From the UHGV virus genome UHGV-1373362: DNA of 64,000 nt; one strand, 5' to 3'. The notes under the pieces were generated by a model. That model did not search any database. It was given only the letters and a program-made list of their open reading frames with translations, and was not told the origin of the DNA. The translations under genes were made by a program, and so were the position numbers. The stretch is from a virus. The number at the start of each line of letters is the position of its first letter. The stretch's first letter is position 1. This document shows positions 26,485 through 31,702 of the stretch, in pieces.

Positions 26485-26697
26485 GTGGTAAACTTTAACG
26501 TGTTTTACATGTTTAAAAAGATTTCAATTGCCCTTGGATTAGTAATACTCACTATGGGTTGTGTTAGTCTTGTAGGGTGGTTATGTAGTGCTGCTAGCTG
26601 GGTATTAAATATACTTGGTATATTTACTATTGTTGGCTATAGCAAACTAATAGATTATTTAATAAGAAAACATTTTAACAAAGAAAGTAATGAGTAG
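26485..26697 (+). CDS. small membrane protein
   Basis: 70 aa with two hydrophobic helices. Confidence 0.35.
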   Translation: MVNFNVFYMFKKISIALGLVILTMGCVSLVGWLCSAASWVLNILGIFTIVGYSKLIDYLIRKHFNKESNE

Positions 26698-27493
26698 AGA
26701 GTCTAGTTATGGCATGGGGGCGTTAGCCGTTATTGCGTTAGTGGTGGTAGTATTTCTAAGTTGTTTCAGCATTGACAGAATTGATTCTGGACAAACTGGA
26801 GTCATGGTCAATCTGGCAGGTAATGATAGAGGAGTAGATGATGCAAAGATTGAGACAGGTTGGGTAGTATATAACCGTTTTACCAAACAGTTATTTGAAT
26901 ATCCTGCATATGCTCAGATCGTGGATTACCCTCCTTTTGAAATCCAGGACATGAAGGGTACTATTTTTACAGCAGATCCAACCATTGAGTATTACATAGA
27001 ACGTGATAAGGCTAAAGATGTATTTCTGAGGTATAGAAAAGACATTGAGGCTTTAGAAAATACTGCAATACTCGCAGAGGTTAAGAATGCCTACAAGGAC
27101 ATATCTGGAATGTATGAAACAGACAGTCTCATTAATAATAGACCTCAATTTGAAAAGGAGGTTGAGGAATTACTAAGGACAAGACTCAGTGATAGGGGAT
27201 TTACCTTTAGTAATATCCAATCATCCGTTATGCCTAACTCTGCACTGCAAACTGCAATTGATGAAAAGAATACTGCTGTGCAAAAGGCCTTAAAGGTTGA
27301 AAATGAAAAGAAAGCTGCTATTGCTGAAGCTGAGAAAGCTGTAGCTGCTGCGAAGGGTAAAGCTGATGCTAATAGGTTATTGGAACAATCCATTACGCCT
27401 GAACTATTGCAATTGAAAGCAATAGAGAAATGGGATGGTACGATGCCATTGTCAGTTGGTGGAGGTACTCTGCCCTTCTTGAATTTAAAATAA
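26690..27493 (+). CDS. SPFH/band-7 (prohibitin/HflK-like) membrane protein
   Basis: N-terminal transmembrane helix, then an SPFH-type domain, then an Ala/Lys-rich coiled coil (AAIAEAEKAVAAAKGKADA) typical of the HflK/C and band-7 family. Confidence 0.65.
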   Translation: MSRESSYGMGALAVIALVVVVFLSCFSIDRIDSGQTGVMVNLAGNDRGVDDAKIETGWVVYNRFTKQLFEYPAYAQIVDYPPFEIQDMKGTIFTADPTIEYYIERDKAKDVFLRYRKDIEALENTAILAEVKNAYKDISGMYETDSLINNRPQFEKEVEELLRTRLSDRGFTFSNIQSSVMPNSALQTAIDEKNTAVQKALKVENEKKAAIAEAEKAVAAAKGKADANRLLEQSITPELLQLKAIEKWDGTMPLSVGGGTLPFLNLK

Positions 27494-27519
27494 CTCAGTA
27501 TTAAAAACTTATTAAAATT

Positions 27520-28808: not shown

Positions 28809-29171
28809 ATGGATTATCAAGAAGTATTAAAGCTCCGAGAGGAAATCTTTGCTGATGGTAAAGTAACCAAAGAGGAAGTTGAACTATTATGGAGCAAAAA
28901 GGATGAGCTTGAAGAGACATCTGCGGAATTTGGCAGTTTGTTTGCGGAGGCTGTAATGGCATGGCTGTTAGATGATGGTATTATTGATGAGGAAGAGGCT
29001 CAATATATCATCAATAAAATTACCGAGGATGATACAATCGATGATGCCGAATTGGAACTACTTTACAGCCTGAACGATGTATATCAATCAGGTCTGTTAC
29101 TTCCTAAATGTCTATTAGAAGCATTCCCAGACTTCTTTACGGAAGACGAGGAAGAGGGGATAGAAGAGTAA
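28809..29171 (+). CDS. acidic TerB-like protein
   Basis: 120 aa, highly acidic, with repeated DG..EE motifs (ADGKVTKEEVELL, DDGIIDEEEAQYI) reminiscent of TerB. Confidence 0.35.
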   Translation: MDYQEVLKLREEIFADGKVTKEEVELLWSKKDELEETSAEFGSLFAEAVMAWLLDDGIIDEEEAQYIINKITEDDTIDDAELELLYSLNDVYQSGLLLPKCLLEAFPDFFTEDEEEGIEE

Positions 29172-29206
29172 TTCTCTTCGTGTAATTTATAACGTATGTC
29201 GAGATT

Positions 29207-31702
29207 ATGAATACAGTAGGATTAAGTGATAATGAAGTATTACAGAGTAGGAACCTTTATGGTTCTAACATACTAACTCCACCTAAAAGAGACCCCTGGT
29301 ATATTCTTCTATTAGAGAAGTTCAAAGATCCTCTGATAGAGATCTTATGCGTTGCAGCTATAATTGCATTAATATTAGGTATAATCAAGCTAGAGTTTGA
29401 GGAACCTATAGGAATTATTCTTGCTATATGTTTAGCTGTAGGAATGGGATTTTTGAATGAGTGGAGTGCTGCCAAGAAGTTTGATATTATGAATCAAGTA
29501 TCAGACGACATTCTTGTAAAGGTTAGGCGTAGTGGTCATGTAACCCAAATACCACGGAAGGATTTAGTTGTAGGAGACATAGTAATTCTAGAGTCAGGGG
29601 AAGAGATTCCCGCTGATATAAAAATACTTGAATCTCACAATCTAAGGATTAACGAGTCTGCCCTAACAGGGGAATCCAAGGCCGTTATTAAAATGTCTAT
29701 AACTGAAGGAGAGAACAATGGTACATATCCTTCAGATATGGTACTTAGGGGAACTACAATTGAAGAGGGAACAGCGACAGGTGTAGTTACAGCAGTTGGT
29801 GATAAAACTGAAATTGGCAAAACTGCCAGACAAGCTGCTGAAATTACTGATGTTACAACCCCATTAAATAAGCAACTTAATGGTTTAGCTGAACTAATAA
29901 ATAAGATTGCTTACGGCGCCGCAACCTTTCTAATTATCTCTTTATTAGTAAAGTATTTCTTTATTGAGAAGGGGTATATAGGACAAGACTGGATGCAAAT
30001 AGCGAATGATATGCTATCATGTTTAATGATTGCAGTAGCATTGATTGTAGTAGCTGTACCAGAGGGTTTACCAATGGCAGTTACATTAGCTCTAGCATAT
30101 TCAATGAAAAGAATGTCTAGGGCTAATAATCTAGTTCGTAAAATGCATGCATGTGAAACTCTTGGAGCAACTACATTAATATTGACTGATAAGACTGGGA
30201 CACTTACTCAAAATAAAATGAAAGTGGTAGACTCTAATATTACTGATGATAGTTATTTAAAATATAACATCTTAGGTAATAGTACTGCTTTTATTGAAGG
30301 GGACAAGACTATTGGAAATCCTACAGAGGGTGCCTTAATAAGGCATCTTAATGTAAGCCAAGCAGGGGTTGATATTCTTAGGGAGGAATGCAAACCTGTC
30401 TATAGAGAGGAGTTCTCCAGTAAGTCCAAATACATGCTTACAGTCATTATGCGGGGTGATAGGTATATAGGTCTAATTAAAGGAGCACCAGAAGTAGTTG
30501 AAGGATTCTGTACTGAGGTACCACTCGATGTAGATGCTACAACTCAGCAGTATCGAGGCCGACGAGTAATTGGCTTTGCCTTTAAGGTTACTGACACTCT
30601 TGAAGATGCCGCTTCCCTTACAGGCTATAACTACAATGGTTATATGGCTATTGAAGATCCTATTAGACCTGATGTCCCTGAAGCAATTAGAGCTGCGAAG
30701 AAGGCAGGCATCAAAGTTAAAATCATCACTGGAGACAATCCAACTACAGCTATAGAGATAGCTAGGCAAGCAGGATTGAGTGATTCACCACAAGGAATGG
30801 CTGGTATTGATATGAGGAATAAGTCGAATCCATATGATTCGGTTACAGGTATTTCTACTATTGATGTCTTTGCCAGAACGAAACCTGAAGACAAGCAAAC
30901 ACTGGTTACAGAGTTTCAAGCTCTAGGTGAAGTGGTGGCTATGACCGGTGATGGTACTAACGACGCCCCAGCACTTAATCATGCTGAAGTGGGTATAGCC
31001 ATGAATAATGGCACCGATGTGGCTAAAGAAGCTGCTGACATTATTCTACTCGACAATTCATTCCCCTCTATCATCTTGGGAGTAAAGTGGGGTAGAAGCT
31101 TGTATAAAAATATACAACACTTTATTCTATTCCAATTGACCATTAACGTAGTTGCTATATTAATTGCGTGCGTAGGTCCATTTATTGGAGTGAATTTACC
31201 CTTCACTGTAGTACAGATGTTATGGGTAAACTTAATCATGGATACATTTGCTGCACTGGCGTTAGCTACTGAGCCAGCTAACGATGCAGTTATGGAAGAA
31301 GCACCTAGAGATCCTAAGGCATTCATTATCACTAAGAACATGTGGTGGGAAATTTTAGGTAAAGGTCTCATATTCTTCTTATTCTTAACCTGGTTGCTTA
31401 TAGGCGAAAAGGTTTCACTAAGCTACTTCTTTACAATATTTGTATTGTTGCAGTGGTGGAACTTATTTAATGCTAGAGTATTTGGGCAAAAGAGAAGTAT
31501 CTTTGATGGCTTACTAAAGAATCCTGCATTTATAGGAATCTCTTTAGTTATTTTAGTAGGTCAATTCTTAATAGTGCAATTTGGTGGAGATATGTTCCGT
31601 ACAGAACCTATTCCTCTAAATCATTGGGGTTTACTAATAGCAGGAACTTCAATAGTAGCTATATTTAGAGAATTGAAATATCAAATAAGCAAAATCTTTT
31701 GA
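29207..31702 (+). CDS. P-type cation-transporting ATPase (type IIA Ca2+-ATPase-like)
   Basis: Phosphorylation motif DKTGTLT, hinge GDGTNDAPAL, PEGLP transport motif (VAVPEGLPMAVTLALAY) and about 10 TM helices. 831 aa. Confidence 0.9.
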   Translation: MNTVGLSDNEVLQSRNLYGSNILTPPKRDPWYILLLEKFKDPLIEILCVAAIIALILGIIKLEFEEPIGIILAICLAVGMGFLNEWSAAKKFDIMNQVSDDILVKVRRSGHVTQIPRKDLVVGDIVILESGEEIPADIKILESHNLRINESALTGESKAVIKMSITEGENNGTYPSDMVLRGTTIEEGTATGVVTAVGDKTEIGKTARQAAEITDVTTPLNKQLNGLAELINKIAYGAATFLIISLLVKYFFIEKGYIGQDWMQIANDMLSCLMIAVALIVVAVPEGLPMAVTLALAYSMKRMSRANNLVRKMHACETLGATTLILTDKTGTLTQNKMKVVDSNITDDSYLKYNILGNSTAFIEGDKTIGNPTEGALIRHLNVSQAGVDILREECKPVYREEFSSKSKYMLTVIMRGDRYIGLIKGAPEVVEGFCTEVPLDVDATTQQYRGRRVIGFAFKVTDTLEDAASLTGYNYNGYMAIEDPIRPDVPEAIRAAKKAGIKVKIITGDNPTTAIEIARQAGLSDSPQGMAGIDMRNKSNPYDSVTGISTIDVFARTKPEDKQTLVTEFQALGEVVAMTGDGTNDAPALNHAEVGIAMNNGTDVAKEAADIILLDNSFPSIILGVKWGRSLYKNIQHFILFQLTINVVAILIACVGPFIGVNLPFTVVQMLWVNLIMDTFAALALATEPANDAVMEEAPRDPKAFIITKNMWWEILGKGLIFFLFLTWLLIGEKVSLSYFFTIFVLLQWWNLFNARVFGQKRSIFDGLLKNPAFIGISLVILVGQFLIVQFGGDMFRTEPIPLNHWGLLIAGTSIVAIFRELKYQISKIF

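Follow-up and report, generated by a model that had tools for sequence, protein, structure and literature searches.

The 64,000-nt stretch of the virus genome UHGV-1373362 that was analyzed here (referred to below as the window) carries a compact block of genes for two soluble TerD paralogs, a small acidic protein assigned to the TerB family, and a P-type ATPase predicted to be a Ca2+ pump of the PMCA (P2B) type, with a gene for an SPFH protein on its upstream side. The block probably represents a reduced, phage-encoded form of a Bacteroidales Ter-type module, which would buffer and export cytoplasmic Ca2+ during infection. Direct support exists for the protein identities, for the intactness of the catalytic residues and of Ca2+ site II in the pump, for the order of the genes in a large clade of gut phages of ~185 kb, and for the occurrence of the same set in the same order in bacterial contigs; the purpose is what we infer. 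The related phage loci used for comparison are the 50 found in an IMG/VR scan with the pump as the query (mostly contigs of 140-190 kb, with a pump identity of 47-76%).

Gene block and its conservation

All five consecutive open reading frames (ORFs) that had been marked in a reading of the bare sequence (the sequence-only reading) are present on the + strand, at 26690-27493, 27520-28134, 28138-28785, 28809-29171 and 29207-31702, with gaps of 3-35 nt between them. The idea of that reading, a Ca2+-related Ter-like module on a phage, is supported by the domains of the encoded proteins. The block and its closest neighbors are composed of the following features (TM, transmembrane):

26485..26697, + strand: small ORF of 70 aa, basic (pI 9.1), with two predicted TM segments; its last 8 nt overlap the start of the SPFH gene
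26690..27493, + strand: SPFH/Band-7 (prohibitin-like) protein; Pfam Band_7, one N-terminal TM segment
27520..28134, + strand: TerD1, canonical TerD; Pfam TerD, Ca2+ loop GDNRTGAGDGDDE
28138..28785, + strand: TerD2, divergent TerD paralog; Pfam TerD, extended acidic loop GDDRGGDEFDDGCDNE
28809..29171, + strand: small acidic all-helical TerB-family protein, 120 aa (by hhalign); directly upstream of the pump
29207..31702, + strand: PMCA-type (P2B) P-type ATPase, 831 aa; NCBIfam TIGR01517 and motifs
31705..32103, + strand: ORF of 132 aa with two predicted TM segments; begins 2 nt past the stop codon of the ATPase (phrog_3878, E 8e-13)
32110..32145, + strand: intrinsic-terminator-like hairpin, a stem of 16 bp and then a T-run; the operon probably ends here

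The conserved core is TerD-TerD-(TerB)-ATPase. TerD1, TerD2 and the ATPase are contiguous in 48 of the 50 related loci, across a pump divergence down to 58%, and the TerB-like gene is found between TerD2 and the pump in 29 of them (intact where checked). Conservation of all five genes as a block, as had been expected from the sequence, thus holds for TerD1, TerD2 and the ATPase but not for the SPFH gene, which adjoins TerD1 in two loci only (L006 and L040).

The SPFH assignment itself stands: the protein matches Pfam Band_7 (PF01145) with 54.2 bits vs a cutoff of 23.6 (E 2.5e-14) and phrog_200 with E 5.5e-52, and has an N-terminal hydrophobic/TM segment at about residues 4-33, so that both the domain and the membrane anchor are present. 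The comparison of this protein with the PDB sequences gave no match. An ORF of 58-70 aa with two TM segments precedes the SPFH gene in all three SPFH-bearing genomes (58-65 aa in L006 and L040; the 70-aa ORF of the window shows a weak match to phrog_10784 'membrane protein', E 7e-4), and the two genes therefore form a cassette placed between the upstream gene and TerD1. Homologs of SPFH occur in 603 phage records, where they are common as stand-alone genes, the nearest ones (37-41%) in crAss-like and Lak phages. The SPFH gene with its small TM partner is a sporadic, lineage-specific accessory cassette and not a part of the conserved module.

The 132-aa ORF, also called as a gene 2 nt after the ATPase in L054 and with a homolog detected in 26 of the 50 related loci, is the putative last gene of the transcription unit. 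The hairpin that follows it has the longest stem among the 10 terminator-like sites in 24000-33500, and no terminator-like site of comparable strength lies within the block. The genes, arranged head to tail, are probably transcribed as one unit that ends at this hairpin.

Two further observations concern the surroundings of the block. The subclade whose pumps are ~63% identical has an acyl-carrier-protein-like gene (PP-binding) shortly before TerD1 (L051, 6175-6441; also L052 and L053) and, further upstream, an AAA ATPase gene; the window has no counterpart there. Another gene for metal handling, at 34124-34783 and 2.4 kb downstream of the pump, encodes a ferritin-like/rubrerythrin-like protein (Pfam Ferritin, E 1.2e-12). 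It was detected in 29 of the related loci, with identities of 61-91%.

The predicted Ca2+ pump

The ATPase contains the Pfam domains E1-E2_ATPase, Cation_ATPase_N, Cation_ATPase_C, Cation_ATPase and Hydrolase. The NCBIfam equivalog for PMCA-type pumps (TIGR01517) matches with 632.5 bits vs a cutoff of 507, while the SERCA-type equivalog TIGR01116 (388 bits, cutoff 703) and the PMR1-type model (469 bits, far below its cutoff of 798) do not reach their thresholds. The heavy-metal (P1B/IB) models are also below their cutoffs (243 vs 346 for TIGR01525; far below for the Cu, Cd and Zn models), and the same is true for the Mg, H+, Na/K and Kdp models. The pump had been announced as SERCA-type with a PEGLP signature. 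The signature is present and a Ca2+ rather than a heavy-metal pump is borne out, but the subtype has to be corrected to PMCA.

The motifs comprise TGES at 154-157, PEGLP with E286 (AVPEGLPMAVT), DKTGT with D328, TGDN, and GDGTNDAP; the ion-site residues are N675 and D679 in NLIMDT (M6) and Q749 in M8. All the catalytic and ion-site motifs are kept across the phage clade. The best PDB matches are ACA8, PMCA2 and PMCA1, followed by LMCA1 (E 7e-122 to 1e-105), and the match to SERCA is weaker. Interpreted with what is known of the ion sites of SERCA and PMCA, M5 (NVVAIL) has Ala at the position of the SERCA site-I Glu and M8 has Gln, and the M5, M6 and M8 residues match those of PMCA1, PMCA2 and ACA8. 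A single Ca2+ site (site II) is therefore predicted, and the protein is classified by these features as a PMCA-type (P2B) pump.

A calmodulin-type autoinhibitory region was not found in the 831-aa protein: its residues from 4-7 to about 815-831 align with the ACA/PMCA structures, the ACA8 alignment begins at target residue 137, and the PMCA1 alignment ends at residue 1042 of 1274. The bacterial relatives are similarly compact (840-884 aa). An exhaustive search placed the nearest relatives beyond the phage clade at 45-50% identity, and the named nearest cellular ones are entries of the type 'calcium-translocating P-type ATPase, PMCA-type [Bacteroidales bacterium]' (~48%). The best 120 database homologs all belong to the phage clade, with some clusters of more than 1,700 sequences; the pump-bearing phage clade is abundant. 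Other 'phage' matches to the pump in tblastn were mostly unannotated fragments or records of Mg2+-transporting ATPases, which look bacterial or contaminant.

In three related loci the pump gene is interrupted. In L041 (11693-12819), L042 and L050 (11783-12887) it is split between G583 and T584, inside the GDG/TND motif, by an insert of 1127 nt in L041 (the match in L042 is equally extended) and 1105 nt in L050, neither of which is a multiple of 3. The whole Rfam model Intron_gpI is matched by the inserts of L041 (E 3e-7) and L050 (E 9e-7), at scores below the gathering score, and an internal ORF of 242 aa is present in the L041 insert. These features suggest a group I intron, with a homing-endonuclease-like gene, that sits within a Ca2+ pump gene.

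The TerD paralogs

Both TerD assignments are confirmed by Pfam (TerD, PF02342, cutoff 25.3), with 193.9 bits for TerD1 (E 2.3e-57) and 88.5 bits for TerD2 (E 5e-25), and both proteins match the PDB entries 3ibz and 2kxt, the TerD structures from Klebsiella and Streptomyces. TerD1 aligns with them end to end (E 4.5e-45 for 3ibz, 4.7e-44 for 2kxt). Its loop GDNRTGAGDGDDE is aligned to GDNRTGEGDGDDE of 2kxt, an intact Ca2+-binding loop conserved across the clade. This loop of TerD1 agrees with GDN(R/L)TG(E/A)GDGDDE, the Ca2+ loop motif reportedly given in the Klebsiella TerD structure paper.

TerD2 (E 3.6e-12 with 2kxt) has the longer loop variant GDDRGGDEFDDGCDNE, of a type, GDDxxGDxxGxDGxDNE, that is kept in the phage clade. 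This extended loop is also found in the bacterial clusters L144, L148 and L149 described below; therefore, the split between TerD1 and TerD2 predates the phage. The TerD2 allele of the window is 50-57% identical to all the other alleles. In the case of TerD1, the 600-bp segment 27500-28100 is 96-100% identical to L013 at the nucleotide level (100% for the protein), whereas the flanks are 55-70% identical. TerD1 is best described as a gene-sized recombination patch, and the block as a mosaic. TerD genes are annotated in many cultured large phages.

The TerB-family protein

The 120-aa ORF in front of the pump is strongly acidic (pI 4.05, 37 D+E). It had been called TerB-like from the sequence, which is upheld at the family level; the window copy itself has no Pfam match above threshold (the best is DUF533 at E 0.092) and no TerB hit. 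The orthologs that L030 and L032 have at this position exceed the cutoff of Pfam TerB (PF05099; 31.7 and 28.4 bits vs 24.4), and when the members of the family were scanned one by one with Pfam, 9 of 13 hit TerB and 12 of 13 hit DUF533. The alignment of the window subfamily (25 sequences) with 17 cellular relatives in hhalign gave a probability of 99.4% (E 7.9e-22, 91 columns, 40% identity). These relatives are mostly named TerB-like or DUF533-family (YebE) by NCBI/JGI, and several have Pfam TerB; the cellular relatives of the L032-type protein are named TerB family, many with Pfam TerB. Repeats of the type 'DG-x-[IV]-x-x-E-E' are present three times in the ORF of the window, and three or four times in the family (as ADG-x-[IV]-x-x-E-E). 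The AlphaFold2 model (pLDDT 88) consists of six helices. By its profile the protein can be placed in the TerB family.

Bacterial counterparts of the block

The bacterial clusters were found by locating the genes for the cellular TerB-like relatives. Four of them, listed by gene order, are:

L142, a Bacteroidales contig from a metagenome-assembled genome (MAG), with GlyRS and Rho: TerD–TerD–OmpA–TerB-like–P-type ATPase
L144: TerD–VWA–VWA–85aa–VWA/TerY_C–PP2C–kinase–TerB-like–ATPase
L149, 199.5 kb, with PBP1 and ParE: TerD–TerD–69aa–bPH_2–VWA–85aa–VWA/TerY_C–PP2C–142aa–kinase–TerB-like–ATPase
L148, 85 kb: TerD×4–VWA–TerB-like–VWA–82aa–VWA/TerY_C–PP2C–kinase–Na_Ca_ex

In L142, L144 and L149 the TerB-like gene is directly upstream of the P-type ATPase. 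This ATPase shares AVPEGLPM and LWVNLIMDTFAA with the phage pump and, at 43-46% identity to it, is on a par with the closest cellular homologs. The P-type ATPase and the CaCA antiporter of L148 are unrelated and end the same type of cluster, so this non-homologous displacement points to Ca2+ efflux. The linkage is not universal. A TerB relative from Gemmataceae is encoded on its own, one from a Planctomycete comes after TerD at the end of a contig, and the nearest Bacteroidales pumps, P0404 and P0416, are found in housekeeping contexts. From the latter, an independent assembly of TerD and the pump in the phage lineage had been considered; it was dropped after the TerB-linked pumps were seen in L142, L144 and L149.

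A second, separate linkage of TerD and a pump is the arrangement YceG–TelA–TerD×3–P-ATPase of gut Clostridia. Two GenBank entries from human faeces, MT836648.1 and MT840059.1 ('UNVERIFIED: Bacteriophage sp.'), were tried as further phages with TerD and a pump and look like mislabelled phage entries. MT836648.1 (L058) is by Pfam a fragment of a bacterial chromosome with MetRS, MoaC, TatD and a full Ter system (MarR–PRTase/TRSP–StiP/PELOTA–C-C lyase–YceG–TelA–TerD×3–ATPase). MT840059.1 (L056) has the same linkage of TerD×3 and a pump, the latter with 73% identity to the pump of a Lachnospiraceae MAG. In a genome scan with the MT836648.1 pump (80 loci), two or three TerD genes abut the pump in 7 of the 8 closest loci and in none of the 72 more distant ones; the TerD-abutted Clostridia pumps come from Lachnospiraceae, Ruminococcus, Falcatimonas and Clostridium.

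These arrangements bear on the possibility that the five genes are not functionally coupled at all, and are 'moron' genes acquired independently and brought side by side. The SPFH gene is clearly such an independent, sporadic insertion, the TerB-like gene is missing from one subclade, two pump-bearing loci have no TerD nearby, and in the Jug phages TerD and the pump have been described as separate operons (PMC12880540). For the core, the TerD-TerD-pump order maintained in 48 of 50 loci at the pump divergence given above and the same association in two unrelated types of bacterial cluster make such an accidental neighborhood very improbable.

The ion that is moved can be questioned as well. The pump could carry another divalent cation, e.g. 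Mn2+ like the PMR1/SPCA-type ATPases, and serve metal supply or detoxification (e.g. the metalation of exported proteins), with TerD and TerB acting as metal chaperones. The PMR1-type score of 469 bits is substantial, a ferritin-like gene lies 2.4 kb downstream, and the pump of the Clostridia clusters occupies what we take to be the position of TerC/YceF in B. subtilis yceCDEFGH; TerC-family proteins are reported as Mn2+ exporters. That score is nevertheless far below its cutoff, whereas the PMCA-type model passes its own, the M6 segment NLIMDT is identical to that of PMCA, the corresponding slot in L148 is filled by an antiporter of the Na_Ca_ex family, pointing to Ca2+, and the TerD1 loop matches the Ca2+-binding loop of Klebsiella TerD. 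A different cargo is thus quite improbable.

Components not found with the phage block

The sequence-only reading had spoken of a complete module, which does not agree with the searches. In tblastn, the window gave no match to TelA, YceG, StiP, PRTase or C-C lyase, and homologs of the TerY vWA, PP2C and kinase (of L149), OmpA, bPH or CaCA were likewise not found, either there or in the 55 phage loci compared. TerC is not among the 10 ORFs of 24849-32103 (Pfam, PHROGs), the part covered by this search, which was not extended to the whole window. By these comparisons, the phage appears to hold only the Ca2+-binding and export half of the bacterial cluster.

A vWA gene at 17587-18501 had also been connected with the Ter genes, as in the TerY proteins. 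The ORF is present and has a MIDAS-like DVTGS motif, but it matches phrog_2971, a PHROG of unknown function, and fails in Pfam (VWA_2, E 0.2, 12.7 bits vs a cutoff of 27). It shows no similarity to the TerY vWAs of the bacterial clusters. In both phage clades it is located directly upstream of a PurZ-like gene and moves together with it: one clade has it 9 kb upstream of TerD, and in the other it follows the pump at a distance of about 2 kb. On these grounds the link to the Ter genes is not supported. The PurZ-like adenylosuccinate synthetase itself (phrog_1211, E 2e-44; 17587-19546 in the window together with the preceding vWA-like ORF) hints at a genome with 2-aminoadenine (Z).

The part that the phage lacks is of interest for defence. 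TerY-P has been proposed as a metal-sensing phosphorylation switch, and TerY-P-like modules are described as stand-alone antiphage systems (PMC11090510, PMC7699616). The Ter/TerY-P-type clusters of the host may sense a metal or Ca2+ signal that arises from infection. The phage TerD, TerB and pump might therefore clamp a signal, i.e. remove or sequester the Ca2+ or metal signal, or titrate the host partners, so that the kinase/phosphatase switch of the host never fires. In the bacteria the set of TerD, TerB and Ca2+ exporter is joined to the vWA(TerY_C)-PP2C-kinase triad, of which the phage is free while it keeps the Ca2+-handling half; the roles of TerY-P in the literature fit, and the swapping of TerD alleles between lineages and the high divergence of TerD2 are compatible with an arms race. 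On the other hand, no PADLOC model matches the phage proteins, and for the bacterial triad PADLOC gave no match of the vWA or PP2C, and only weak generic matches of the L149 kinase to other kinase-containing models, so that membership in the published TerY-P systems is not shown for it. The TerY-P of the Gao type has a different kinase fusion, and both the defensive role of the Bacteroidales clusters and Ca2+ as the trigger are conjecture. We regard counter-defence of this kind as unlikely.

The module could also act against other phages, altering the envelope or Ca2+ so that competitors cannot adsorb, inject or develop, comparable to the inhibition of some phages and colicins by the plasmid ter operon. 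Classical phage inhibition needs a ter operon with TerC, and the window yielded no other classical Ter component, with TerC covered only in the ORFs named above. The position of the module among genes of the early/middle type, between the tRNA array and the replication genes, and the membrane SPFH scaffold that adjoins it in the lineage of the window would suit such a role. The very high transcription of the pump in situ (PMC12880540) fits a productive infection at least as well, and superinfection exclusion seems to us rather improbable.

Genome context and host

The phage nature of the window is clear from its 24 tRNAs, its replication genes (helicases, primase, exonuclease, NrdD, ligase) and the location of all substantial ORFs on one strand. 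An identical copy of the pump protein is present on a contig of 185,332 bp. The megablast comparison of the block with the GenBank phages gave no match. The closest deposited relative of the UHGV-1373362 phage is probably MT835470.1 (GenBank, 117 kb, human faeces), with an NrdD 88% identical to that of the window (55220-57298); the homologs of this NrdD in cultured phages are at most 57% identical.

The start codons in the block (26670-31715) all lack a Shine-Dalgarno-like motif in front of them, and their leaders are rich in A/T. Such leaders are typical of Bacteroidota. On the basis of the missing Shine-Dalgarno motifs and of the nearest homologs of SPFH, the pump and TerB, which are found in Bacteroidales or their phages, the host probably belongs to the Bacteroidales.

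The 24 tRNA genes are located on the + strand at 11519-24824 and include four copies of tRNA-Met(cat). Some tRNAs of the array are unusually long, e.g. tRNA-Ile with 97 nt (11693-11789) and tRNA-Ser with 93 nt (14078-14170).

Proposed function

Judged from homology, the pump would export Ca2+ at the expense of ATP from the cytoplasm to the periplasm of the probable Bacteroidales host. TerD and TerB would bind Ca2+ in the cytoplasm, either as buffers or as sensors/adaptors for the pump (for TerD2 and TerB this is probable). The purpose would be to hold down the free cytoplasmic Ca2+ of infected cells within the Ca2+-rich gut, and thereby to counter the entry of Ca2+ through envelope damage at infection; the module might also prevent Ca2+-dependent stress or defence responses of the host. 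The SPFH protein with its small TM partner would be a separate membrane-scaffold cassette that landed beside the module in the lineage of the window.

Several observations speak against this Ca2+-buffering and export module, or limit it. The acidic ORF is absent from the subclade with ~63% pump identity, in which TerD2 abuts the pump, and the pumps of L035 and L050 have no TerD beside them, so these partners are not essential to the pump. The sigma-70 promoter scan gave no enrichment (29 sites vs 35 expected) and no promoter was identified, so that co-transcription is deduced from the spacing of the genes. The structure searches with the 120-aa ORF did not confirm a TerB fold, and the loop of the TerD2 allele in the window is atypical. 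Because the components of the phage and the bacteria are only 31-46% identical, it is plausible, though not proven, that they were captured as one block. The ion specificity and the transport direction of the pump are taken from homology, with Ca2+/Mn2+ promiscuity being possible, and the assignment of the host is indirect.

A more specific role has a low probability in our estimate. The module would be an anti-defence device in which TerD and TerB are Ca2+-sensing regulators of the pump, a phage or prokaryotic counterpart of calmodulin–PMCA, and by buffering and expelling Ca2+ it would erase the infection Ca2+ signal, which the Ter/TerY-type (vWA–PP2C–kinase) clusters of Bacteroidales, with their own TerD, TerB and Ca2+-exporter genes, would otherwise turn into a defence response. 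If this were true, the Ter proteins would gain a concrete job, namely the sensing of Ca2+ coupled to its efflux.

Comparison with known systems

Highly transcribed Ca2+-ATPases have been described in the gut Jug phages by Chen et al. (Sci Adv 2026, PMC12880540), who also report separate terD operons, read as stress genes, a co-transcribed ORF of 77-91 aa upstream of the pump 'without detectable homologs', and four smaller phages (159-197 kb) with the pump. As in the Jug and other huge gut phages, the block contains a P2-type Ca2+ pump with its nearest cellular relatives in Bacteroidaceae/Bacteroidales, a small ORF directly upstream of it, and terD in the same genome. Unlike in the Jug phages, TerD-TerD-TerB-pump is here one tight block, the upstream ORF is assigned to the TerB family, and the genome has ~185 kb vs 360-402 kb (PMC12880540). 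A scan for Jug-type loci, meant for a comparison of their small upstream ORF, recovered nothing but the query contig.

The bacterial clusters L142, L144, L148 and L149 share with the phage block the families and their order, with TerD1- and TerD2-type paralogs and a TerB-like gene directly upstream of a PMCA-type pump. They differ by the vWA/TerY_C, PP2C and Ser/Thr kinase genes, present in three of the four and absent from the phage, and by OmpA in L142, bPH_2 in L149 and the CaCA antiporter that replaces the ATPase in L148, while the phage lineage adds SPFH. The Clostridia clusters (L058, L059, L061-L066) are similar in that TerD paralogs abut a P2-type cation ATPase. Their pump is of a different subfamily, 31-34% identical to that of the phage, and TelA and YceG are present; the TerDs inspected (L062) all have canonical loops, and no TerB-like gene was found beside the pump by tblastn.

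The composition of the classical ter operon was reportedly laid out by Anantharaman, Iyer and Aravind in 2012. With terZABCDE and B. subtilis yceCDEFGH the block has in common the multiple TerDs, a TerB-family protein and a membrane cation transporter, and the Ca2+ loop of TerD1 is nearly identical to that of Klebsiella TerD. Unlike in the classical operon, a P-type ATPase stands in place of TerC, and no TelA, YceG or PRTase/StiP/C-C lyase was found in the window. In respect to PMCA, ACA8 and LMCA1, the phage pump has the same catalytic motifs, the M4 Glu, the M6 Asn/Asp, no site-I Glu in M5 and the M8 Gln, but it is without the N-terminal (ACA) or C-terminal (PMCA) calmodulin-binding autoinhibitory region. 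Another Ca2+-transporting P-type ATPase encoded by a virus is that of the Chlorella virus, a eukaryotic giant virus (Bonza et al. 2010, as described in PMC12880540); going by that description, it resembles the phage pump in its viral origin, and TerD/TerB partners are not reported there.

Phage Ca2+ pumps and phage TerD genes are thus each already known (PMC12880540). What appears to be new is the TerD-TerD-TerB-pump operon of the phage, the TerB identity of the upstream ORF, and the bacterial counterparts with a P-type ATPase or a CaCA exporter. In the literature searched, no description of the phage operon, the TerB identity or the matching bacterial clusters was found; the 2012 paper on the comparative genomics of Ter might mention them.

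Implications

To our knowledge, the function of the Ter proteins has been unclear for decades. Ca2+ pumps of phages were described only in 2026, and without known partners. The association of TerD, a TerB-like protein and a Ca2+ exporter (a P-type ATPase, or Na_Ca_ex in one contig) is a recurrent genomic unit, which some bacteria connect to a vWA–phosphatase–kinase triad, and of which the virus keeps the Ca2+-handling half, in an abundant natural system. This offers the testable hypothesis that Ter proteins work with Ca2+ efflux. If confirmed, cytoplasmic Ca2+ would be a variable contested by gut phages and Bacteroidales.

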